Shown here: one piece after another, positions 1,598 through 35,126 of the stretch
How positions within the stretch are numbered: position 1 is the stretch's first letter
Layout: the number at the start of each line of letters is the position of its first letter
Source of the DNA: a virus
IMG/VR virus record: IMGVR_UViG_3300045988_060248
Reading direction: 5' to 3' (one strand)
DNA: 35,126 nucleotides
Translations under genes and position numbers: made by a program
Notes under the pieces: model-generated
What the model was told of the DNA's origin: nothing
What the model saw: only the letters and a program-made list of their open reading frames with translations
Database searches by the model: none

Positions 1598-1629
1598 TAT
1601 CAAGTGTTAAAACGGGCTGCCCGCCCGTT
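1598..1629 (-). promoter_or_regulatory. Candidate double-strand origin or attenuator: GC hairpin plus CTTGATA motif upstream of rep
   Basis: Minus strand reads AACGGGC-GGGCA-GCCCGTT (7-bp stem, 1611-1629), then TTTAACA, then CTTGATA (1598-1604). This lies about 35-65 nt upstream of the rep ATG. Confidence 0.35.
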
Positions 1630-1636
1630 AAATTCC

Positions 1637-1665
1637 TTGACTTTGCGCCATACATAGCTTATAAT
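1637..1665 (+). promoter_or_regulatory. Near-consensus sigma-70/sigma-A promoter on the plus strand
   Basis: TTGACT (1637-1642), a 17-nt spacer, then TATAAT (1660-1665). It is the only strong plus-strand promoter noticed in the window. Confidence 0.6.
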
Positions 1666-1671
1666 TTTTAT

Positions 1672-1735
1672 AGTATTTCAAAGCTGTATAGCTTAGCGCC
1701 TATGGTGTTTCCCCACCGTAGGCGCTTTTATTTTT
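1672..1735 (+). ncRNA. Putative ~62-nt countertranscript (antisense RNA) to the rep mRNA leader
   Basis: Bounded by the promoter at 1637-1665 and the intrinsic terminator at 1695-1735. It contains a small stem-loop AAGCT-GTAT-AGCTT (1681-1694). No RBS-preceded ORF lies inside. Confidence 0.5.
1695..1735 (+). terminator. Rho-independent terminator (plus strand)
   Basis: AGCGCCTATGGTG-TTTCCC-CACCGTAGGCGCT forms a 13-bp stem with one G-U pair, followed by TTTTATTTTT. Confidence 0.7.
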
Positions 1736-6523: not shown

Positions 6524-6597
6524 TGTGCCGTGTGGGATTTGAACCCACGACTTGCCGCTTATGAGGCGGCTGCTCTAACCAGCTGAACTAACGGCAC
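6524..6597 (-). tRNA. tRNA with CAT anticodon (elongator Met, or Ile2 if lysidinylated)
   Basis: Hand-folded cloverleaf: GTGCCGT-TA-GTTC-AGCTGGTTA-GAGC-A-GCCGC-CTCATAA-GCGGC-AAGTC-GTGGG-TTCAAAT-CCCAC-ACGGCAC-A. It has a 7-bp acceptor stem and a G1-C72 pair (so not an initiator). No CCA is encoded. Confidence 0.9.
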
Positions 6598-6867: not shown

Positions 6868-7062
6868 TTATAGTGCCTGCTGCCCTGCTGCTGCCGTGTA
6901 AGTTTTCAATGTAAGCCCGCAGCGTTTGAACTCTCTATAAATTGTGTCCCTATGCGTTCCCAGCGCCTCTGCAATATCGCTTACACTGCTGCCATGCTTA
7001 CTCATAGCCTCTATGGTCTGCCTGTCCTCATAATGCAGACGCTTATACTTTCGTTTTCCCAT
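6868..7062 (-). CDS. Stand-alone IS30-type helix-turn-helix (HTH_38-like) protein
   Basis: KRLHYEDRQTIEAMSKHGSSVSDIAEALGTHRDTIYREFKRCG aligns by eye with the N-terminus of the transposase at 8037-9098 (RQLTWTDRISIEALKKAGHSVIEIAEQLGVHRSTIYNELKRGE). Confidence 0.6.
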   Translation of the reverse strand: MGKRKYKRLHYEDRQTIEAMSKHGSSVSDIAEALGTHRDTIYREFKRCGLTLKTYTAAAGQQAL

Positions 7063-7107
7063 GCTCTATGCTCCTTTCTTTTGGGCGACGTTGCCGCCGC
7101 CCTTTCC

Positions 7108-7731
7108 TCATTTTTCTGCTACAGCCTCTGGCTTACAAAGAATGTGCATACACAAAAGCCCCTTTATAGCTGTTGGTAAATCATACGGTATAATTTTTTC
7201 TTCATTGCACTGGTCGAACATTGCGTTTATTCCTGCTATTTGCCATTCTTCTACGTCATTCTCTCCACTTTTCAAAAATTCCGCTGCGTCCCGTGCCTCT
7301 CTTATGCAATCTTTCATAACTCTTGCGTTATTGTCGTGTACGCTTACTCTAAATTGCAGTTTATCCGGCTCTTTCTTTCGCTGCTCTTCAAACTCTGCCG
7401 CTTCTCTCTTCTCTGCATCCTCTTCGTTAAGCATCTCGTCAGCGAACCAATAAACCAGCTTATATAGCCTCTTTATTGCTTTCTTTCGGTTTTCGCTTAA
7501 TTCTACTTTTTCCTCTGCCTTGTCTGAATAGATACGGCTTTTGCTGTACTCTGTACTCCAAAACTCTGTTACGCCGTTCTCTGTTCTCTCGTAAAATATC
7601 CCGCTACCGTCCTTGCATACATACTGCTTATGAATGACGTTATTTTCCATGCTTGATGTTTCTTCGTATTCTTTCCCGTACAATACTGCCGCTTTTGCTG
7701 CCTCATACTCTTCAAATTTCACTCTTTCCAT
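7108..7731 (-). CDS. Hypothetical protein (207 aa, acidic, coiled-coil segment)
   Basis: Start moved to MERVKFEEY (ATG 7729-7731, RBS AAGAGAGG), because the ORF-track start (GTG 7791) lies inside a terminator hairpin. Confidence 0.55.
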   Translation of the reverse strand: MERVKFEEYEAAKAAVLYGKEYEETSSMENNVIHKQYVCKDGSGIFYERTENGVTEFWSTEYSKSRIYSDKAEEKVELSENRKKAIKRLYKLVYWFADEMLNEEDAEKREAAEFEEQRKKEPDKLQFRVSVHDNNARVMKDCIREARDAAEFLKSGENDVEEWQIAGINAMFDQCNEEKIIPYDLPTAIKGLLCMHILCKPEAVAEK

Positions 7732-7753
7732 TCTCCGTACCTCTCTTTCGTTG

Positions 7754-7794
7754 TAAAAAAATAAGCGTGTCAGAGTTTTTACGCTCTGCACGCT
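7754..7794 (-). terminator. Rho-independent terminator (minus strand)
   Basis: Minus strand reads AGCGTGCAGAG-CGTAAAAA-CTCTG(A)CACGCT (11 bp with one bulge), followed by TATTTTTTTA. Confidence 0.6.
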
Positions 7795-8036: not shown

Positions 8037-9098
8037 TTATGCAAGCTGCTTTACCTCTTCCTCGAATAGTTCCCCTGCTGAATGATAGCCATGTATTTTG
8101 CGTGGGTATCCGTTTATCCAGTTCTCTATACTCTCTACCTCTTCCTCTGTCCTGTCGTCAAAATTTGTGCCTTTCGGTATCTTCCGGCGTATCATCTTAT
8201 TTGTTACCTCATTTGTGCCACGCTCCCAACTGCTGTATGGGTGGCAGTAATATACCTTTGTCCGTTTCTCTCCCTCGTTGATAATAGAACGCTGTAAGCC
8301 CTCTGCGTCTGCAAACTCACTGCCGTTGTCTACCGTGATTGTCTTAAATACCCGCTTAAACATTTCAGCGCCCCATTTTCTTTCTAATCTGTCCAGTGCC
8401 GCTACTACTGCCTCGTCTGTATGGTCTGGCAGCTTAAATATAATCTCGTTTCTGGTTTTCCGCTCTGTCAGTACCAGCAACGTATTTTTTGACTTTCCCC
8501 GCTTACCTAAAACGCTGTCCATTTCCCAGTTGCCAAACTCTTCCCGTGTATCTATCTCTTTCGGGCGTTTGTCTATACTCTCTCCTGCTGCCGCCCTTTT
8601 CTGCTGCCTCTGTACTTTCTTATAATTTCTCTTCTTATTCTTCTTTACTGGCAAATTCTTATTAGACAGCTTAAGGAAAATACCCTTGTCAATGTAGCTG
8701 TATAAAGTCGTTACGCATACTGTTACGGAAAAGTCCCCCTCTTTCCCCTGTGCTTTCAATTCTCCCAGTACCGCAGCTGGGCTGTAATCTTCATTTACTA
8801 TTTTATCCTCTATATAATTTGCGTATGCAATATCGTTGCCTATTTTAAGCTGTGTACCCCTTGCCTTTAAGTTTTCCTCTGCTTTCATTTGTGCCTTGTT
8901 TGGGCTATAACTTAATGTTTCTGTATAGTCGCTATTTCTGTGCATATATTCCCCTCGCTTAAGCTCATTGTATATAGTGCTGCGGTGTACTCCCAGCTGT
9001 TCTGCTATCTCTATCACGCTATGCCCTGCTTTTTTCAATGCCTCAATACTTATACGGTCTGTCCATGTCAGCTGTCGGCTGCCTTTCTTATTCGCCAT
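8037..9098 (-). CDS. IS30-family DDE transposase/integrase (353 aa)
   Basis: N-terminal HTH (ISIEALKKAGHSVIEIAEQLGVHRSTIYNELKRG). The DDE region (WEMDSV...ITVDNGSEF...YYCHPYSSWERGTNE) is typical of IS30. No terminal inverted repeats could be found by eye. Confidence 0.85.
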   Translation of the reverse strand: MANKKGSRQLTWTDRISIEALKKAGHSVIEIAEQLGVHRSTIYNELKRGEYMHRNSDYTETLSYSPNKAQMKAEENLKARGTQLKIGNDIAYANYIEDKIVNEDYSPAAVLGELKAQGKEGDFSVTVCVTTLYSYIDKGIFLKLSNKNLPVKKNKKRNYKKVQRQQKRAAAGESIDKRPKEIDTREEFGNWEMDSVLGKRGKSKNTLLVLTERKTRNEIIFKLPDHTDEAVVAALDRLERKWGAEMFKRVFKTITVDNGSEFADAEGLQRSIINEGEKRTKVYYCHPYSSWERGTNEVTNKMIRRKIPKGTNFDDRTEEEVESIENWINGYPRKIHGYHSAGELFEEEVKQLA

Positions 9099-9892: not shown

Positions 9893-10090
9893 CTACTTCA
9901 ATTCTAAAATTTCATCAGCAGAGGCGTTAAGCTCTCTGCAAATTTTCGCAAACGCTGGCACGCTAGGCGTTCTTTCTCCGTTTTCCCAGCGGCTTATATC
10001 TTTCGGGTAAACTTGCAGGCGCTCTGCAAGTTCCTTTTGCGTCACGCCTGCCGCTTTTCGTGCTTTCCTTATGTTCTCGCCTAAATTCAT
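9893..10090 (-). CDS. XRE-family (Cro/CI-type) HTH transcriptional regulator, 65 aa
   Basis: NIRKARKAAGVTQKELAERLQVYPKDISRWENGERTPSVPAFAKICRELNASADEIL is a canonical HTH_3 pattern. RBS is AGAGAGG. Confidence 0.85.
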   Translation of the reverse strand: MNLGENIRKARKAAGVTQKELAERLQVYPKDISRWENGERTPSVPAFAKICRELNASADEILELK

Positions 10091-10185
10091 GCCTTACCTC
10101 TCTTTTCTTTCGCTCTCAAAATGAAAGCAATAAGTAGCTTTACAAGTCCTACTGCTACTAAAAATACTCCTAATTTCAAAAGCAT
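10087..10185 (-). CDS. Micro-ORF, 32-aa single-TM peptide (below the ORF-track cutoff)
   Basis: Hand translation gives MLLKLGVFLVAVGLVKLLIAFILRAKEKRGKA. Its TGA overlaps the XRE ATG (ATGA). The RBS is weak. Confidence 0.3.
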   Translation of the reverse strand: MLLKLGVFLVAVGLVKLLIAFILRAKEKRGKA

Positions 10186-10267
10186 ACTCTTTACTCGGCT
10201 GTGGGTTTGTGTTATATTTCTTATAGGCGGCGGGCTTATCGCCCGCCTGTCGGTTAGGGCTTTCGCC

Positions 10268-10387
10268 CTAACCTATGTACTTACCAATTATGATAAGTAT
10301 TATGCCTATGATTAAGTCTATCAATGCGTTGATTGTCAGGTCTCGCCATTCGATAGGCTTTTTCTTTTGTTTCTTTTTCTTACCCAT
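10268..10387 (-). CDS. Micro-ORF, 39-aa single-TM peptide (below the ORF-track cutoff)
   Basis: Hand translation gives MGKKKKQKKKPIEWRDLTINALIDLIIGIILIIIGKYIG. A strong RBS, AAGGAG, lies 10 nt upstream. It is the first ORF after the consensus promoter. Confidence 0.5.
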   Translation of the reverse strand: MGKKKKQKKKPIEWRDLTINALIDLIIGIILIIIGKYIG

Positions 10388-10451
10388 TGTGCCGTTTCTC
10401 CTTTCCAGTGGCTTTGCCTCTTATTTGTTCTTATCTCCTTTCCATGATTTA

Positions 10452-10480
10452 ATTATATACCCATTTGGGTAACTTGTCAA
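10452..10480 (-). promoter_or_regulatory. Perfect-consensus promoter with an embedded 6-2-6 inverted-repeat operator
   Basis: Minus strand reads TTGACA (10475-10480), a 17-nt spacer, then TATAAT (10452-10457). The spacer contains TACCCA-AA-TGGGTA (10458-10471). Confidence 0.7.
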
Positions 10481-10512
10481 CGCTTTTATGCAGAAAATAC
10501 TATAAAATATGC

Positions 10513-10549
10513 AAAAAAATAGAGGGCAGACAGCGAACCGCCAACCCTC
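10513..10549 (-). terminator. Terminator after the endolysin gene (end of the late operon)
   Basis: Minus strand reads GAGGGT...GCCCTC as a hairpin, followed by TATTTTTTTG. Confidence 0.5.
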
Positions 10550-10555
10550 GAAAAC

Positions 10556-14536: not shown

Positions 14537-14690
14537 TTTGACTTATTCTCCTAAAGGGCTTTCGCTATATCCGTGCTACTAACCCTTACCTTTTTCGGTT
14601 GTATTTCCACTCGCTAAATAGTTATCGCTGTTTCAAGCGCCTGTGGTGTAGGATAATAGGGTACTTGGTTATTGTTCCGTCAATTAGATA

Positions 14691-14800
14691 AGTTAAGCCC
14701 AGCCCGTAATTCCAATTCGAGTGAGAAAGCGCATTGTTCAAATTCAAAGCGCAGCCCACATGCAAGCCGTTATTGCCAGAGCCGCCAAAGCGAGCAAAGC
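14691..14800 (-). repeat. DGR template repeat (TR), 110 nt, non-coding
   Basis: Aligns to 14913-15022 at an offset of 222 nt with 96/110 identity. All 14 mismatches are T on the + strand here (A on the sense strand). Confidence 0.9.
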
Positions 14801-14888: not shown

Positions 14889-16484
14889 CTACGCTGCTAA
14901 AGGTTGCTCGCAAGTCAAGCCCAGCCCGTAATACCAACCCGAGAGAGAAAGCGCAGCGCCCAAAACCAAAGCGCAGCCCACAAGCAAGCCGTCAGTGCCA
15001 GAGCCGCCAAAGCGAGCAAAGCTTTGTTGTGACGTATTCCACCAGCAGCCGTCTGGTATATATGTACTGTCGCTGCCAGATACTGTAGTAGGTAATAATC
15101 CGTATTCGCTCATATTGTGCGCACTCTGATAGCCGCCACTTGTCCCGGCGATACCAAAGCTCATAGCTGTATATCCGCTACCGCTTGTGCTGTATGGTCT
15201 GCACATCTTAACGCCGTACTTACTTGTCGTGTTATATACAAGTCCCTGCATCAGTTTCCAGATATTGCCCCAGAAATTTTCTGTATGAAATACCTTAACT
15301 ACATCATTTGCTGGCTTTCCGTAAAACTGCCCCTTTGTATTTCCCGTTCCAGATTGTTTTAAGTGGCTTGCTTGGCTCATTCCGGTATAATATCCGTACC
15401 CCCACGCCTGCTGCACATTGTCATTAAGTGACATAAGCCGCAGCAAATCCCAGATAAGCGCCACTCTGCTCCATGTGTCACACTCCCATAAGCTGCCGTT
15501 TGCCTGTGCATATGCAAGCTGTGTATTTCCAGCAACTGTATTACATGGTGTCAAGCCGGATAACGAACGTATTTTATTACTTACGTTTGCGCCGTCGTAA
15601 ATGGAACGTGCGAACCATTCCATAATAGTACCGTCCTCTCTCTGGTGCGCATATGCCTTAAAATCGTCTGTAAGCTGTATGTTGCACACTTGGAAATACT
15701 CATACGTGCTATCCTGCCAGCGTTTTACCCAGCATGTAGGGAATAACGCCATGGCATTACCGCCGTACTCTTTATTTGCTACGTCAGATGCACCGCCGCT
15801 TTTCTTTTTGGTGTAGTCGTCTGGGTTAAGCTCATAATCTACCGTGCCGTCGTATTTCATCATAACGGGCTTATTTTCGCTAACAAACCACACATTAGCC
15901 CATTCTTTCAAATCAACTGCGCCAGTGCTTGTGTTAAGCGTTGCTTTTCCCATTCCTACTGCCATATCTGTAGCCTCTAATCTCGTGGCTGGGTTACTGT
16001 CTGCTTTTGTTCTCTTGTATCCGTATAACACGTATGCTTGCGGCGTAAACTTGGTACGGTTTTTCTGTGCGTATGTATCACTTAATACCCTTAAGCCTGC
16101 TGCCCTGTTATAATAATTATCATTCGAGTACGGAAAAGCCGCTATATAGTATTCTGTGCCGTTCGTCAACCTGTCGATAACCAGCGGTGTACTTTCATAT
16201 TTTCCAAATTCGGTATTATCCACAATTAGTGTGCCGTCGTCCTCATTTAGTGGATAACTGCCAGCTTTCAGAACAATTTTGACACCTTTTACACTACATA
16301 CCCGTTGCCCGTCTATATAGGTGTCGTCTGGTTCTTTGAATTTCAACTTAGCACCGCTGTCTACTGGCGTAATACTGAAAAGCTGCATATCCTGTGGCGG
16401 TATGCCTGCCGTTAATTTTTCTGCTGCCTTTTCAACTTTTCCCGCTGTTTCATCAATAATATACTGTGCCTCTGCGTAGCTCAT
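14889..16484 (-). CDS. DGR target protein: tail-fibre / receptor-binding-module protein with C-terminal variable region
   Basis: 531-aa ORF whose start overlaps the upstream tail gene stop (ATGA). The VR encodes residues ..SFARFGGSGTDGLLVGCALVLGAALSLSGWYYGLGLT.., 8 codons from the C-terminus. Position is within the tail-fibre module. Confidence 0.8.
   Translation of the reverse strand: MSYAEAQYIIDETAGKVEKAAEKLTAGIPPQDMQLFSITPVDSGAKLKFKEPDDTYIDGQRVCSVKGVKIVLKAGSYPLNEDDGTLIVDNTEFGKYESTPLVIDRLTNGTEYYIAAFPYSNDNYYNRAAGLRVLSDTYAQKNRTKFTPQAYVLYGYKRTKADSNPATRLEATDMAVGMGKATLNTSTGAVDLKEWANVWFVSENKPVMMKYDGTVDYELNPDDYTKKKSGGASDVANKEYGGNAMALFPTCWVKRWQDSTYEYFQVCNIQLTDDFKAYAHQREDGTIMEWFARSIYDGANVSNKIRSLSGLTPCNTVAGNTQLAYAQANGSLWECDTWSRVALIWDLLRLMSLNDNVQQAWGYGYYTGMSQASHLKQSGTGNTKGQFYGKPANDVVKVFHTENFWGNIWKLMQGLVYNTTSKYGVKMCRPYSTSGSGYTAMSFGIAGTSGGYQSAHNMSEYGLLPTTVSGSDSTYIPDGCWWNTSQQSFARFGGSGTDGLLVGCALVLGAALSLSGWYYGLGLTCEQPLAA
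14913..15022 (-). repeat. DGR variable repeat (VR)
   Basis: Counterpart of the TR. 14 of the 19 TR adenine positions are substituted, and 0 of the 91 other positions. Confidence 0.9.
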
Positions 16485-24830: not shown

Positions 24831-25289
24831 TTACTCTGTCATTACTACTGCTACGCCTGCCTCTTCCAGAACTGCTGCACGTTCTTTGCTTACTGTGTAA
24901 GTTTCCCCCGTATCCTTAATCTGGTTTAATTCCTTGTCAAGAAAACGACGCTTTGCTTTCACTTTTACCAGCCCTGCTGCTTTCTTTTCTTCCTCGGCTT
25001 TGGCTGCTGCCTCTGCTGCTGCCTTTTCCTCTTCGGCTTTGGCTGCCGCCTCTGCTGCTGCCTTTTCCTCTTCGGCTTTGGCTGCTGCCTCTGCCGCTGC
25101 CTCGGCTGCTACTTTTTTATCCTCTTCCGTAAGTTCGCTGTCGTCTGGTATGTCTACCTCGACGGCTGCGCAGCGTGCAGCAATTTCTTTCTTTGTTCCC
25201 TCTGCATCTACGCCCAGCTGCTTTGCCAGTTCCTGCAAATCCTCTTTCTTATAGCTTTCCAGCTCTTTTGCGTCTAAGTATCCTTTCAT
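24831..25289 (-). CDS. Hypothetical head-module protein with N-terminal SAP/Rho-N-like helix pair and Ala/Glu/Lys tandem repeats
   Basis: LQELAKQLGVDAEGTKKEIAARC is followed by three copies of AAAEAAAKAEEEK. Confidence 0.55.
   Translation of the reverse strand: MKGYLDAKELESYKKEDLQELAKQLGVDAEGTKKEIAARCAAVEVDIPDDSELTEEDKKVAAEAAAEAAAKAEEEKAAAEAAAKAEEEKAAAEAAAKAEEEKKAAGLVKVKAKRRFLDKELNQIKDTGETYTVSKERAAVLEEAGVAVVMTE
24984..25100. repeat. Three tandem copies of a 39-bp in-frame repeat
   Basis: cttttc(c/t)t(c)ttcggctttggctgc(c/t)gcctctgc(t/c)gctgc at 24984-25022, 25023-25061 and 25062-25100, with 1-3 mismatches between copies. Confidence 0.85.
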
Positions 25290-32545: not shown

Positions 32546-32771
32546 TTACTACCTCGTTTTCCTGCTTAATCTCAACATTTCTGCCGCCTCGCTGCTTTAT
32601 AATTGCCTCTACGTGCAAGTATGCAGGCAGCATAACCACGCTACCTGTTCGTAACTGATATTCTACGCTTTTCCGCATCTTCTCGTATTGCTCTGCCTTA
32701 CAAAACGCCGTACAGCCCAGAATAATTGTAAATACCTGTGCTTTCTTCTTTTTCCGCTGCCGTCTATTCAT
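32538..32771 (-). CDS. Hypothetical protein (77 aa)
   Basis: The ATG overlaps the ParB-like stop region by 8 nt. Confidence 0.45.
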   Translation of the reverse strand: MNRRQRKKKKAQVFTIILGCTAFCKAEQYEKMRKSVEYQLRTGSVVMLPAYLHVEAIIKQRGGRNVEIKQENEVVNV

Positions 32772-34032
32772 GCTCTGCCCCGCTTTCCGTGTCCGTTTCG
32801 GACACCTCTCCCGTATAGTCTGTTACTCTGATACCCAGAATGCAGTAGCCCTCTGTAAGCCCTGTATAATCTTCCAGCATATAAATAATATCTGCATCAA
32901 TCGTGCGCCCTGTGTGCTTACCGTCCTTAAATTCCAGCATTTTAAGGCTGTCGCCCCGTTTATAGCCTCTGTCATTCTTCCGCAGTTCAAAGCTCTTTTT
33001 CCCGCTTACTACGTCCTCGTAATAAGATGCCACTATTTTTACCTCATGCTGCTTATGCTCTGTGTTTCCCTCGCTTGGCAGATGCTCCATTTTTTCTGCG
33101 TCTGTCCGCTCCTGCAATTTCTTCTTTGTCTGTCGGTCTATAGCGTCCTGCTCTTCGCTGTATCGCTGTTCGTCTGTCTTTTCAGCCTCTGCCTTATTTA
33201 TGTACTGGTCGCATTTCTGGCACGTTCCCGTTTTTACGTTGCAGTCCTTGTATTTCTGGCAGGAATAGCACAAAGACGTTATGCTTTCTGGGTGCGGTGT
33301 TTCGTAATCGTCCCCCGCCTTTTTCTCTGCTACCTTTTCCGCTATTTCCTTTGCCCTCACATTTTTGCCCGCTGCTGCCTTTTCTGCTATTTCTTTCTGC
33401 TCGTCCTCGTCCAGCTTGGCTGCCTCGTATGCAGCAGTGATACCTAAATTGCCCTCTTTCAGCTGCTCTTTAATCTCCGGCGTTGCGTTGTTGTTGATTG
33501 CGTCCATTCTGGCTACGTTTGTGCTGCTCTCGTTTATCATTGCTGCTACTAAATCACGCATTTTGCCCTGTATCTCTAATCCGTCCTCTTCCTTGGCTCT
33601 GATAAGCGCCGCTTTAGTACGCTCTACTAATCTAGTTTTTTCATAGGCTGTAAGTTCCTGCGTGTATCCATTGCCAGCCAATAAGCGCAGCTCATACATT
33701 GCCTCGCTCATATCCATAAAGCGGTAAAGCACTTTCTCATACTCCTTATGCCCCCGCTCTAAGTTCAAAATATTTGCCGCATTACGTCTGTGTCCGTCGA
33801 TTATGCGGTATTCCCCGTTTACCCTCGCTAATACTGTAGGCTGCTCCTGTCCTACGTGTAAAAAGCTGTCTGCCAGCTCTTCTATGTTCTCTAATTTCTG
33901 GTGCGTATTCTCCTGCGCTGCCTTTACCTCGTAAGGGCTTAAATAAATCTCTTTGTATCCGTCCGTCTGTGCCTGCTGCCCTGCTGCTTTCGTCTTTGCG
34001 TTCAGAATGTCGTTAATGCCAAACTTTGCCAT
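32764..34032 (-). CDS. ParB-like N-terminal domain protein fused to a Cys cluster and a C-terminal ASCH/DUF3850 (PUA-like) domain
   Basis: ParB/Srx box: ELADSFLHVGQEQPTVLARVNGEYRIIDGHRRNAA. Cys cluster: CYSCQKYKDCNVKTGTCQKC. DUF3850-like: HEVKIVASYYEDVVSGKKSFELRKNDRGYKRGDSLKMLEF. Confidence 0.7.
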   Translation of the reverse strand: MAKFGINDILNAKTKAAGQQAQTDGYKEIYLSPYEVKAAQENTHQKLENIEELADSFLHVGQEQPTVLARVNGEYRIIDGHRRNAANILNLERGHKEYEKVLYRFMDMSEAMYELRLLAGNGYTQELTAYEKTRLVERTKAALIRAKEEDGLEIQGKMRDLVAAMINESSTNVARMDAINNNATPEIKEQLKEGNLGITAAYEAAKLDEDEQKEIAEKAAAGKNVRAKEIAEKVAEKKAGDDYETPHPESITSLCYSCQKYKDCNVKTGTCQKCDQYINKAEAEKTDEQRYSEEQDAIDRQTKKKLQERTDAEKMEHLPSEGNTEHKQHEVKIVASYYEDVVSGKKSFELRKNDRGYKRGDSLKMLEFKDGKHTGRTIDADIIYMLEDYTGLTEGYCILGIRVTDYTGEVSETDTESGAEHE

Positions 34033-34240: not shown

Positions 34241-35044
34241 CTACCTCGCTTTCCCTGTATACGCTGTTACAAATTTCTTGTACCCCTGCGCCGCTCCGCA
34301 GCATGGGCTATACTCATAAATCGGCTTACGCATGAAAGTATTTTCTGCTACTTTCTTGGAATACCGAATAATACCCAGAATATTAAAATCTGTCTTTTGT
34401 TCCAGCCACTCTACGCCTGCTGCCTCGCCGTCTGTGTTCTGGTATGACGTAATCAGTACGCCTGCCAGCTTTAATGCTGGGTTAAATGCCTTTGCGTCCT
34501 CTATCTGCTCTGTCACAATGTCCAGCCCCTCTAAAGCGTCCTCGTCCACCTTTACGGGTACTATTACCTCGTCCGTGATCGCCAGCGCATTTACGACATT
34601 AAGCCCAATATCCGGCGGGTTATCAATGATGCAGTAATCGTACGCCCTCTCTGTTTCTATATAGTCAAACTTTGCATAGCCGAACCCCAGCACTTTTGCT
34701 GTTACCAACGCCTTGTATCTCTCTATTTGGTTTTCGCTGTCCTCTTTTGTTAAATTCCATGTAGCCCCAAATAATGACATATTTGCCGTTACAATGTCGA
34801 TACCCTCATACTCTGTATGCTGTATCAGCTCGTTTGCGCTTTCCCAGTCTCCAGCCAACAACTTTGTAACTGGTGCTACGTTTTCTGCGTCATATCTGCT
34901 GTACGCCTTGCTTAAATTTCCCTGCTTGTCGTTGTCAATCAGCAACACCTTATAGCCTCGCCTGTAAAGCTCATACGCCATGTTTGCCGCTGTAAAGGTC
35001 TTGGCTACGCCGCCCTTTAAGTTCAAAATGCTTATTGTTTTCAT
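34241..35044 (-). CDS. parA: ParA/Soj-family partition ATPase
   Basis: Deviant Walker A NLKGGVAKTFTAANMA, Walker A' LLIDNDKQGN and Walker B-like YCIIDNPP. Confidence 0.9.
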   Translation of the reverse strand: MKTISILNLKGGVAKTFTAANMAYELYRRGYKVLLIDNDKQGNLSKAYSRYDAENVAPVTKLLAGDWESANELIQHTEYEGIDIVTANMSLFGATWNLTKEDSENQIERYKALVTAKVLGFGYAKFDYIETERAYDYCIIDNPPDIGLNVVNALAITDEVIVPVKVDEDALEGLDIVTEQIEDAKAFNPALKLAGVLITSYQNTDGEAAGVEWLEQKTDFNILGIIRYSKKVAENTFMRKPIYEYSPCCGAAQGYKKFVTAYTGKAR

Positions 35045-35071: not shown

Positions 35072-35126
35072 CTAACGCATGGTTACTGTTTCCTGTTCTT
35101 TTGTAAGCTCGTCTGAATGTAATAAA
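35072..35126. repeat. Terminal exact direct repeat, copy 2 of 2 (identical to 1-55)
   Basis: 55/55 identity with the window start. It duplicates the last 18 codons of the VRR-NUC gene. Confidence 0.95.

Follow-up and report, generated by a model that had tools for sequence, protein, structure and literature searches.

The window analysed here, a 35,126-nt stretch of viral DNA (IMG/VR virus record IMGVR_UViG_3300045988_060248), carries a predicted antisense RNA gene opposite the leader of rep, the gene of an HUH rolling-circle replication initiator (Rep). We assign a probability of about 0.6 to the reading that this feature is a cis-encoded countertranscript gene of ~63 nt, located beside the double-strand origin, whose product would regulate Rep negatively via sequestration of the rep start codon. 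Comparative evidence supports a sequestration of this kind by a leader segment, termed Y′, which would otherwise be held by a decoy, termed b, within the antisense target. Based on the sequences compared, we conclude that a predicted small antisense RNA gene is under selection at the rep leader.

Promoter, terminator and RNA of the antisense unit

The unit is delimited by a near-consensus plus-strand promoter and a G+C-rich terminator (Table 1). Promoter and terminator scans thus confirm an earlier claim, made in a preliminary description of this DNA, that TTGACT-17-TATAAT and a GC-rich 13-bp terminator bracket a short RNA. The promoter is the sole plus-strand site in the 35-kb window that matches the consensus in at least 11/12 positions. 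On both strands together, three such matches are observed versus 0.8 expected from 200 dinucleotide shuffles of the window. Since 53% of the shuffles hold at least one such match, the antisense promoter match taken alone is not significant. The terminator stem (1695–1726) is the longest among all terminator-like sites found in the window, and its hairpin begins 29 nt past the −10 hexamer, within the 131-nt intergenic gap between two minus-strand genes. Because the promoter and the longest-stemmed terminator are juxtaposed in one intergenic gap, a chance arrangement is unlikely.

The predicted countertranscript RNA (ctRNA) contains two stem-loops, SL1 and SL2, of which SL2 is at the same time its intrinsic terminator. 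A 64-nt RNA (1672–1735) folds into both stem-loops with −27.7 kcal/mol (z = −7.7), and 0/200 shuffles are as stable. No credible open reading frame (ORF) is found in the RNA: the sole ATG lies inside a stem, has no ribosome-binding site (RBS), and reads past the terminator. The earlier description of two stem-loops without a credible ORF is thereby borne out. The sequence combines a predicted promoter of its own opposite the rep leader with an intrinsic terminator and a short (50–150 nt) untranslated stem-loop RNA with predicted ends, as is characteristic of the ctRNA class. The RNA lies wholly inside the 131-nt gap between the upstream stop codon and rep. Promoter and terminator scans and the fold reveal neither a sense promoter nor a U-tailed sense terminator between the upstream gene and rep, and we infer that the rep message starts upstream of the leader, via read-through from the gene at 1735–2277.

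All tiled genes of the window lie on the minus strand, including small ORFs with RBSs in the gap at 10091–10555. This agrees with the proposal that the antisense RNA is the only plus-strand transcription unit, an exclusivity that is unprovable from sequence. Two plus-strand ORFs (10121–10315 and 10275–10472) were considered as a hidden divergent gene and rejected in favour of the small membrane-like ORFs, preceded by RBSs, on the minus strand of this gap.

A covariance model built here (R1) detects a single copy in the window, at 1670–1734 with 77 bits. At gathering thresholds, Rfam reports nothing but a tRNA-Met across the whole window. In a permissive Rfam search, the best match is RF00236 (ctRNA_pGA1; 34.4 bits, E ~1e-5, 1683–1740 on the plus strand), which stays below the gathering threshold of 45 bits for membership in that family; the other matches are generic terminator-like, and none is to another ctRNA family. 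The antisense RNA is not a member of any curated Rfam family. A BLAST search of 1600–1740 against plasmids gives no match.

The conservation of the unit was assessed in 80 IMG/VR loci, in 59 loci from species-representative genomes down to ~60% Rep identity, and in named phages; single loci are referred to by L numbers. Among the 80 IMG/VR loci, the intergenic region falls into three clades, in which the hexamers occupy the same columns at 17-nt spacing as TTGACT/TATAAT, TTGCTT/TATAAT, and TTGATA or TTGATT/TATACT, while spacers and flanks vary. Across these clades, G-C pairs of the terminator stem are exchanged for C-G or A-U, one insertion is compensatory, and the T run is retained despite different upstream genes. 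We further scored 57 distinct rep-upstream regions (IMG/VR contigs, Lachnospiraceae genomes, and named phages) by script. About 50 of them have an antisense promoter matching 8–12/12 with a spacer of 16–17 nt, plus a strong hairpin with a T-rich tail, starting 23–38 nt past the −10 hexamer. The antisense promoter is perfect in L138 (TTGACA-17-TATAAT); in L129, the −35 hexamer is apparently lost.

Distant phages with a Rep of ~30–35% identity display a comparable architecture in unrelated sequence. Clostridium phage phiCs5676-1 has TTGACT-17-TATATT with TG, a 13-pair hairpin, and T8; PhiS63 has the antisense promoter TTGACT-17-TAGAAT; MT835488 has a 9-pair hairpin and T7; and the architecture is also present in Dulem virus 34 and MT835543. 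Model R1 misses the distant lineages L082–L086 and L147, where the architecture is analogous and not alignable.

The pattern of substitutions points to an RNA read from the antisense strand. RNAalifold recovers the terminator from 25 diverse antisense sequences, with compensatory changes in 10/12 pairs. Pair 40/57 of the corresponding alignment (A3) is U.G in 10, C-G in 9, and U-A in 2 sequences, which works only on the antisense strand because the other strand would give a C.A mismatch. Moreover, 21/25 distinct hairpins are more stable as antisense than as sense RNA. The SL2 loop TTCCC is kept in 17/25 relatives while the stems change, the pattern expected of a putative first-contact loop. 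Together with the retention of the unit in ~50 of 57 regions, these comparisons give strong evidence for the countertranscript-type RNA, antisense to the rep leader, that the preliminary description had suspected, as a predicted RNA, and they settle its question of whether promoter and terminator are conserved in relatives.

Two observations concern the same RNA in other genomes. In L137, R1 has a second match at 8436–8497 (minus strand; 30 bits, E ~1e-3), ~1.5 kb upstream of the rep gene of this locus; by eye, it comprises TTTACA-18-TATAAT, a hairpin, and a T run, antisense to the region upstream of a different small gene (8576–8779). Phages of this kind may use such an RNA more than once. 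In phiCs5676-1 (L083, 1320–1430) and Dulem virus 34 (L082, 1325–1456), coding sequences for 36- and 43-aa "hypothetical proteins" have been deposited over the RNA and origin. These are probably spurious calls, and if the reading given here is true, it corrects them, as for CS5676_0051 in phiCs5676-1.

Table 1. Positions of the features discussed, in window coordinates
Feature	Position	Strand	Description
rep	797–1564	−	HUH rolling-circle initiator, 255 aa; motifs HHHLVV and YLIKY
rep start region	1552–1564	−	AUG 1564–1562 plus codons 2–4; UGCCAUACGUAG (1552–1563) can form a 12-bp helix with Y′
rep RBS	1572–1577	−	GAGAGG, 7 nt upstream of AUG
Nick-site box of double-strand origin	1587–1606	−	CACTTGATAAAAGTATTAAC, core CTTGATA
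Origin outer inverted repeat	1599–1641		ATCAAG 1599–1604 (complement of nick core) and CTTGAC 1636–1641 (overlaps −35)
Inner origin hairpin	1611–1629		AACGGGC-N5-GCCCGTT; stem conserved, loop free to vary
Antisense RNA promoter	1637–1665	+	−35 TTGACT 1637–1642, 17-nt spacer, −10 TATAAT 1660–1665; 11/12 consensus
Element Y′	1646–1660	−	AAGCUAUGUAUGGCG; beneath antisense promoter spacer; pairs with b or rep start region
Predicted antisense RNA (ctRNA)	1672–1734	+	~63 nt; ends predicted from promoter and terminator
Parts of antisense RNA		+	From fold: 9-nt 5′ tail; SL1 1681–1694, loop GUAU; SL2 1695–1726, loop UUUCCC; U run
Element b	1681–1692	−	GCUAUACAGCUU; inside antisense target; near copy (decoy) of rep start region; pairs with Y′
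Terminator hairpin	1695–1726	+	13 pairs, 8 G-C; loop of 6; tail TTTATTTTTC
Terminator hairpin plus T run	1695–1735	+	T run TTTTATTTTT, abutting the upstream-gene stop codon 1735–1737
Upstream gene	1735–2277	−	DUF7768 / nucleoside 2-deoxyribosyltransferase-like (Pfam, PHROG)
Truncated IS30 piece	6868–7062	−	64 aa, HTH_38 only (domain scan)
Full-length IS30-family transposase	8037–9098	−	HTH_38 + rve; PHROG 4646 "transposase", 1.5e-144

Alternative pairing in the rep leader

Read on the rep-sense strand, the leader contains two competing partners for one segment. Y′, whose core CUAUGUAUGGCG (1657–1646) lies outside the stretch covered by the antisense RNA, can pair either with b (8 + 4 bp) or with the rep start region (12 bp), and the two helices are mutually exclusive. 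In the DNA, the motif GCCATAC is retained in the promoter spacer of nearly all relatives, though spacers normally vary freely.

We tested the switch on an alignment of 26 diverse leaders (A2). The Y′:start helix is 84% paired and the b:Y′ helix 78% paired, as compared to 29–42% for slid controls, and the covariation score of the switch helices is reached by 0/500 shuffles. Five pairs of the b:Y′ helix are altered on both sides. The non-Watson–Crick cells of Y′:start are far more often G.U, as read on the rep-sense strand, than A.C (42 against 7); therefore, Y′:start is a feature of the sense strand, that is, of an RNA. Single loci illustrate how the three elements change. In L141, all three carry a concerted change (b GCCAUAU, Y′ AUAUGGC, start GCCAUAU), while L144 and L146 lengthen both helices by C-G pairs. 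L134 has separate complements, AUACGGCAU for the start AUGCCGUAU and GGCAUAGCU for b, which argues against a single protein-binding repeat.

Folding is consistent with an exchange between the two helices. In the nascent leader lacking the start region, b:Y′ is part of the minimum free energy (MFE) structure for 17/26 leaders; in the full leader, Y′:start is favoured in 17/26; and with the antisense target masked, it forms in 22/26. Both helices can be forced in 21 leaders, where the two states lie 0.1–13 kcal/mol apart and less than 6 kcal/mol in 16/21. With −19.4 kcal/mol, the Y′:start duplex of the window is below every 22-nt window of the rep coding sequence. The duplex between the promoter complement and the start ranks within the lowest 0.5% of such 22-nt windows in 15/21 family members and within the lowest 3.2% in 19/21; it is likewise low in the independent lineage MT835488 (L086). 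In phiCs5676-1, the translation initiation region (TIR) has an unpaired probability of 0.79, which masking reduces to 0.45.

These data suggest the following sequence of events. Read-through from the upstream gene would supply the rep message, and b would pair with Y′ as the leader emerges, leaving the AUG free so that Rep can be made. The antisense RNA would probably dock by its conserved UUCCC(G) loop on the complementary leader hairpin and then zip across b. Y′ would thereby be released and form the 12-bp helix over the AUG and codons 2–4, upon which rep translation would stop. In this way, the antisense RNA could limit initiation after induction, and it could also keep rep silent in the lysogen, the latter being conceivable because the promoter is near-consensus and host-type.

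Two candidate leader peptides, a 12-codon ORF over the upstream stop codon and a 29-codon ORF starting inside Y′, were rejected: both are without RBS and are absent in clades B and C.

Several points weigh against regulation by start-codon sequestration. The antisense RNA, its ends, and its effect on Rep are all predictions. The thermodynamic MFE structure of the window leader already contains Y′:start without the antisense RNA, and for this reason the ON state rests on an assumed kinetic, co-transcriptional fold. By the window-scan null, Y′:start is not significant in Dulem virus 34, MT835543, PhiS63, and phiCs5676-1. The three GCCATAC-like elements might instead be DNA repeats that are bound by Rep and evolve in concert, and the TTGAC of the −35 hexamer might owe its conservation to the inverted repeat of the origin and not to a promoter function. 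Moreover, the Arawn group (L001 and L136), which includes Butyrivibrio phage Arawn, is without the antisense unit, and L119 has apparently lost the −10 hexamer while retaining the structures. Finally, many of the compared sequences are close relatives, so that the counts overstate the number of independent events.

The two exceptional lineages deserve a closer description. In Arawn (L001, 3522–3612) and L136, the rep-upstream gap measures 91 nt and retains the nick box with its adjacent hairpin; the group may represent a natural "knock-out" lineage or employ a different control. The G+C-rich locus L119 (9790–10024) keeps a terminator-type hairpin, b, Y′, the outer repeat, and the nick box, with a weak T run, and its leader structures may matter even without an antisense promoter.

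A simpler antisense effect would need no switch. RNase III could cut the ~60-bp duplex, which would detach rep from the upstream message and destabilize it as lambda OOP does with cII, or the strong convergent promoter could block the sense polymerase by collision or occupancy. Complementarity is complete by construction, the near-consensus promoter opposes incoming sense transcription, and the terminator keeps the RNA out of the upstream gene; lambda OOP is likewise placed just upstream of a replication gene. This explanation, however, leaves the b copy of the start, the conservation of Y′, and the covariation of Y′:start and b:Y′ unaccounted for, and we consider it unlikely as the whole mechanism. 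RNase III cleavage or promoter interference may act alongside the switch.

The origin within the leader

The leader also harbours a predicted double-strand origin. Rep matches Pfam PF23343 (REP_ORF2-G2P, E = 3e-13), PHROG 3584 ("replication initiation protein", E = 1e-65), and PHROG 3419 ("rolling circle DNA replication initiation"); a search against PDB sequences returned no match. The box CACTTGATAAAAGTATTAAC is the top-conserved block of the leader alignment and near-invariant in all relatives, Arawn and phiCs5676-1 among them. In 1.5–1.6-kb plasmids with a related Rep, variants of the box are found ahead of rep, and two such small plasmids (L087 and L088) show the nick box but no comparable antisense unit by eye. 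We take the origin sequence TCTTGATAATAAGGGTAAC to be of the pC194 type, and both it and the phiX174 origin CAACTTGATATTAATAAC resemble the box. For comparison with the box, TCTTGATAATAAGGGTAAC is listed as an RCORI sequence in PMC7072734. If cleavage follows CTTG^ATA, the minus strand should be nicked between 1601 and 1600. With CTTGATA, an inverted repeat, and an HUH Rep gene nearby, the region has the make-up of a pC194/phiX174-type origin, at which nicking is predicted. The outer repeat GTCAAG...CTTGAT surrounds the inner hairpin, is 94% paired across the 26 leaders, and shares bases with the antisense −35 hexamer.

The preliminary description had regarded the hairpin 1611–1629 (GCCCGUUUU) as terminator-like and proposed that the antisense RNA acts through it, that is, by premature termination of the rep-sense transcript in a pT181/pIP501-like attenuation. 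The AACGGGC/GCCCGTT pairing exists, is G+C-rich, and lies between the antisense target and the rep RBS, and UUUU follows it in the window and in about half of the relatives; attenuation can also coexist with translational control, as in pSK41 (PMC5703833). However, the terminator scan does not call the hairpin on the minus strand, because its U run is UUUU only, with two U inside the stem. No such U run is present in Arawn, Dulem virus 34, MT835543, L129, L134, and L140, all of which except Arawn keep the antisense unit. L145 is without the inner G+C hairpin altogether and has only the outer repeat left, yet its antisense unit is kept. The regulatory side of the model fares no better: the window hairpin forms whether the antisense target is free or masked, in most relatives checked the local hairpin pairs are all present in the full-leader fold, and no pre-emptor pairing that competes with the hairpin was found in the window or in the relatives checked. 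Folding thus provides no mutually exclusive terminator and antiterminator. Because the hairpin keeps a fixed position 5 nt from the invariant nick box, we interpret it as an origin element and not as a conserved attenuator, and attenuation as the mode of control is improbable.

The antisense unit might instead serve the origin itself, either because its transcription, directed away from the origin hairpin, supplies negative supercoiling for extrusion or melting of the nick site or because the RNA, annealed close to the 3′ end of the displaced minus strand, primes the lagging strand as a single-strand origin (sso). The −35 hexamer is only 7 nt from the origin hairpin and within the outer inverted repeat, and the position suits an sso, since the nick site is downstream of the unit and the RNA could anneal to the displaced strand. 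In addition, no helicase or primase gene is present among the ~35 window ORFs scanned against Pfam, a part of the gene set, and the small plasmids with a related Rep have a structured region at the corresponding place. Against such a role, the intrinsic terminator, whose T run is conserved, sets the RNA free, contrary to the requirements of a primer; the displaced strand forms no double-stranded promoter, its −10 lying in a loop; the ssoA CS-6 motif TAGCG(T/A) lacks conservation, being TAGCGC in the window and TAGCCC in clades B and C; and the start-codon helix is left unexplained. We regard this role as quite improbable. A functionless chance juxtaposition of promoter and terminator is hardly credible: although an 11/12 promoter match per 35 kb is ordinary, the unit is conserved in place and covaries over dozens of lineages, down to ~30% Rep identity.

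The carrying prophage and related control systems

The window begins and ends with the same 55 nt, an exact direct repeat (1–55 = 35072–35126), and the contig represents a circle of 35,071 bp with a 55-nt assembly overlap; copies in bacterial genomes cross the 1/35126 junction uninterrupted. It encodes a terminase, lysis genes, two SSB-like proteins, a sigma-like protein, a C5 methylase, and DarA_C. Among named phages, Butyrivibrio phage Arawn comes closest (66% Rep identity). Near-identical copies (Rep 97%) lie inside chromosomal contigs of 0.5–3 Mb from Roseburia, Coprococcus, Pilosibacter, and other Lachnospiraceae, and the homology to the integrated copies stops near position 7078 of the window. 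Strains with such a 97%-identical prophage include Roseburia yibonii BX0805, Coprococcus ammoniilyticus H1_22, and Pilosibacter fragilis CSJ-4. IScream phages, described in 2025, are IS30-bounded prophages that use IS30 transposases as integrases (PMC12823448, PMC12934698) and are defined by a full IS30 transposase at one end, a truncated IS30 at the other end, no other integrase, and Clostridia as hosts (PMC12823448). The window element shows these features: both IS30 pieces are present (Table 1), and no tyrosine or serine recombinase is found among the subset of ORFs scanned. No convincing IS30 terminal inverted repeats surround 8037–9098. As judged from its genes and integrated copies, the host element is a predicted integrating temperate prophage of the IScream type.

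Because the element is an integrating IScream prophage with near-identical chromosomal copies, the plasmid-like copy-number control suggested earlier is not established. As a counterpoint to a purely integrated element, the contig is circular and encodes ParA and a ParB-like protein. The ParA-like ATPase (34241–35044) and the ParB-like protein, which is fused to DUF3850 (32764–34032), are both on the minus strand; they might support an episomal phase, but the relatives are chromosomally integrated, and Arawn has no such pair in the corresponding position. As a task for the RNA, silencing of the nickase in the lysogen is no less plausible than plasmid-like copy control.

Tentatively, the RNA may even be a replication-immunity element of the prophage and not a governor of copy number. 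It would then be made constitutively in the lysogen, from its host-type consensus promoter, block the nickase arising from read-through, protect the chromosome from in situ rolling-circle initiation, and silence superinfecting relatives in trans. The latter would operate via the shared UUCCC loop and b decoy and would provide a second, RNA-based immunity layer in the abundant IScream gut phages, with the rest of the one-directional genome presumably quiet in the lysogen. To look for "immunity types" with divergent RNAs, we compared co-resident prophages (L103 and L111 in Otoolea muris; L108 and L133 in one metagenome-assembled genome, MAG). The loop and b are shared by L103 and L111, which diverge in no more than a portion of the terminator stem, so that this comparison is weak support at best for such types.

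Among known systems, the closest in mechanism is the staphylococcal plasmid pSK41, whose RNAI binds the leader ~100 nt ahead of the TIR, an interaction proposed to bring about a stem-loop that sequesters the TIR (PMC5703833). Like RNAI, the RNA described here is a short antisense RNA with two stem-loops and a 5′ tail. Its target lies 108–170 nt upstream of the AUG, and the Y′:start helix would be the sequestering structure, so that a distant antisense target and a TIR-sequestering alternative leader structure are both found in silico. In contrast, the Rep of pSK41 is a theta-type RepA_N protein and not an HUH rolling-circle initiator, and in the window the leader itself contains the origin, the target includes a decoy of the start region (b), and the host is an integrating tailed prophage. 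With neither RepA_N membership nor sequence homology to RNAI, the system is pSK41-like in its predicted working and not a member of that group.

By function, the RNA falls into the countertranscript class. RNAI/RNAII of pT181 and RNAIII of pIP501 also involve a countertranscript against the rep leader of a Gram-positive replicon in which alternative structures set the Rep output (PMC5703833), but they need a rho-independent terminator just 5′ of rep and a pre-emptor, and the window has neither a terminator before the rep RBS nor a pre-emptor. As a replicon, the module is closest to pC194 and pMV158. RNAII of pMV158 and the predicted antisense RNAs of pC194 and pUB110 belong to rolling-circle plasmids and are terminator-ended countertranscripts that inhibit Rep at the level of translation (PMC4485353, PMC5703833), and the nick site of the window is of the pC194 type (CTTGATA). 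However, these RNAs overlap or abut the rep TIR, whereas the RNA described here ends >100 nt upstream and would act through Y′; no CopG-like repressor gene adjoins rep. The Rfam family RF00236 from Corynebacterium rolling-circle plasmids shares a small 5′ stem, a terminator hairpin AGCGCC...GGCGCU, and a U-rich tail with our RNA, but the window is without the 24-nt interior of the family's first stem-loop, so that the match is essentially to a generic terminator.

The closest parallel for the placement in a temperate phage is lambda OOP, a short promoter-to-terminator antisense RNA located just upstream of a replication gene and opposing all neighbouring transcription (for context, see PMC3349717). 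OOP differs in that it targets the 3′ end of cII through RNase III. Moreover, lambda replicates in theta and then sigma mode with O and P and not with an HUH nickase, and there is no similarity in sequence or structure.

Antisense control of rep genes is textbook plasmid biology. Full-text literature searches found no report of it in rolling-circle modules of tailed phages or prophages, and the article that defines IScream phages (PMC12823448) mentions neither rolling-circle replication nor a replication initiator or antisense RNA. The module is widespread, with 137 IMG/VR relatives and 59 loci among GTDB species representatives, mostly Lachnospiraceae, and a comparable architecture occurs in Clostridium, Terrisporobacter-like, and lemur-gut phages with a very distant Rep. 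If true, the proposed arrangement would place origin, nick site, regulator RNA, and leader switch on a concrete map, open to testing, for prevalent uncharacterised prophages of the human gut, and it would be a case of an initiator gene whose regulatory leader contains the origin.

Further observations concern the window and its relatives. Prophages with ~97% Rep identity (L089–L099 and L143) occur in genomes labelled as different genera, including Phascolarctobacterium and Segatella MAGs; the copies in these MAGs are on short contigs and are possibly mis-binned, and the genus spread fits the broad host range reported for IScream phages. The early region contains, near the truncated IS30 fragment, the tRNA-Met gene (CAT; 6524–6597, minus strand, 68.6 bits). 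A perfect 12/12 sigma-70 consensus promoter (TTGACA-17-TATAAT, 10480–10452, minus strand) just past the endolysin terminator heads the small membrane-like ORFs and a gene for a Cro/CI-type helix-turn-helix protein (9893–10090), and a second promoter of 11/12 (7891–7863, minus strand) precedes a gene of unknown function (7108–7791); both are intergenic and near the presumed attachment region. The ORF 24831–25289 contains three tandem, 39-nt-spaced copies of a 51-nt unit (24974–25102), and a 111-nt segment is repeated with 87% identity at 222-nt spacing (14690–14800 and 14912–15022).

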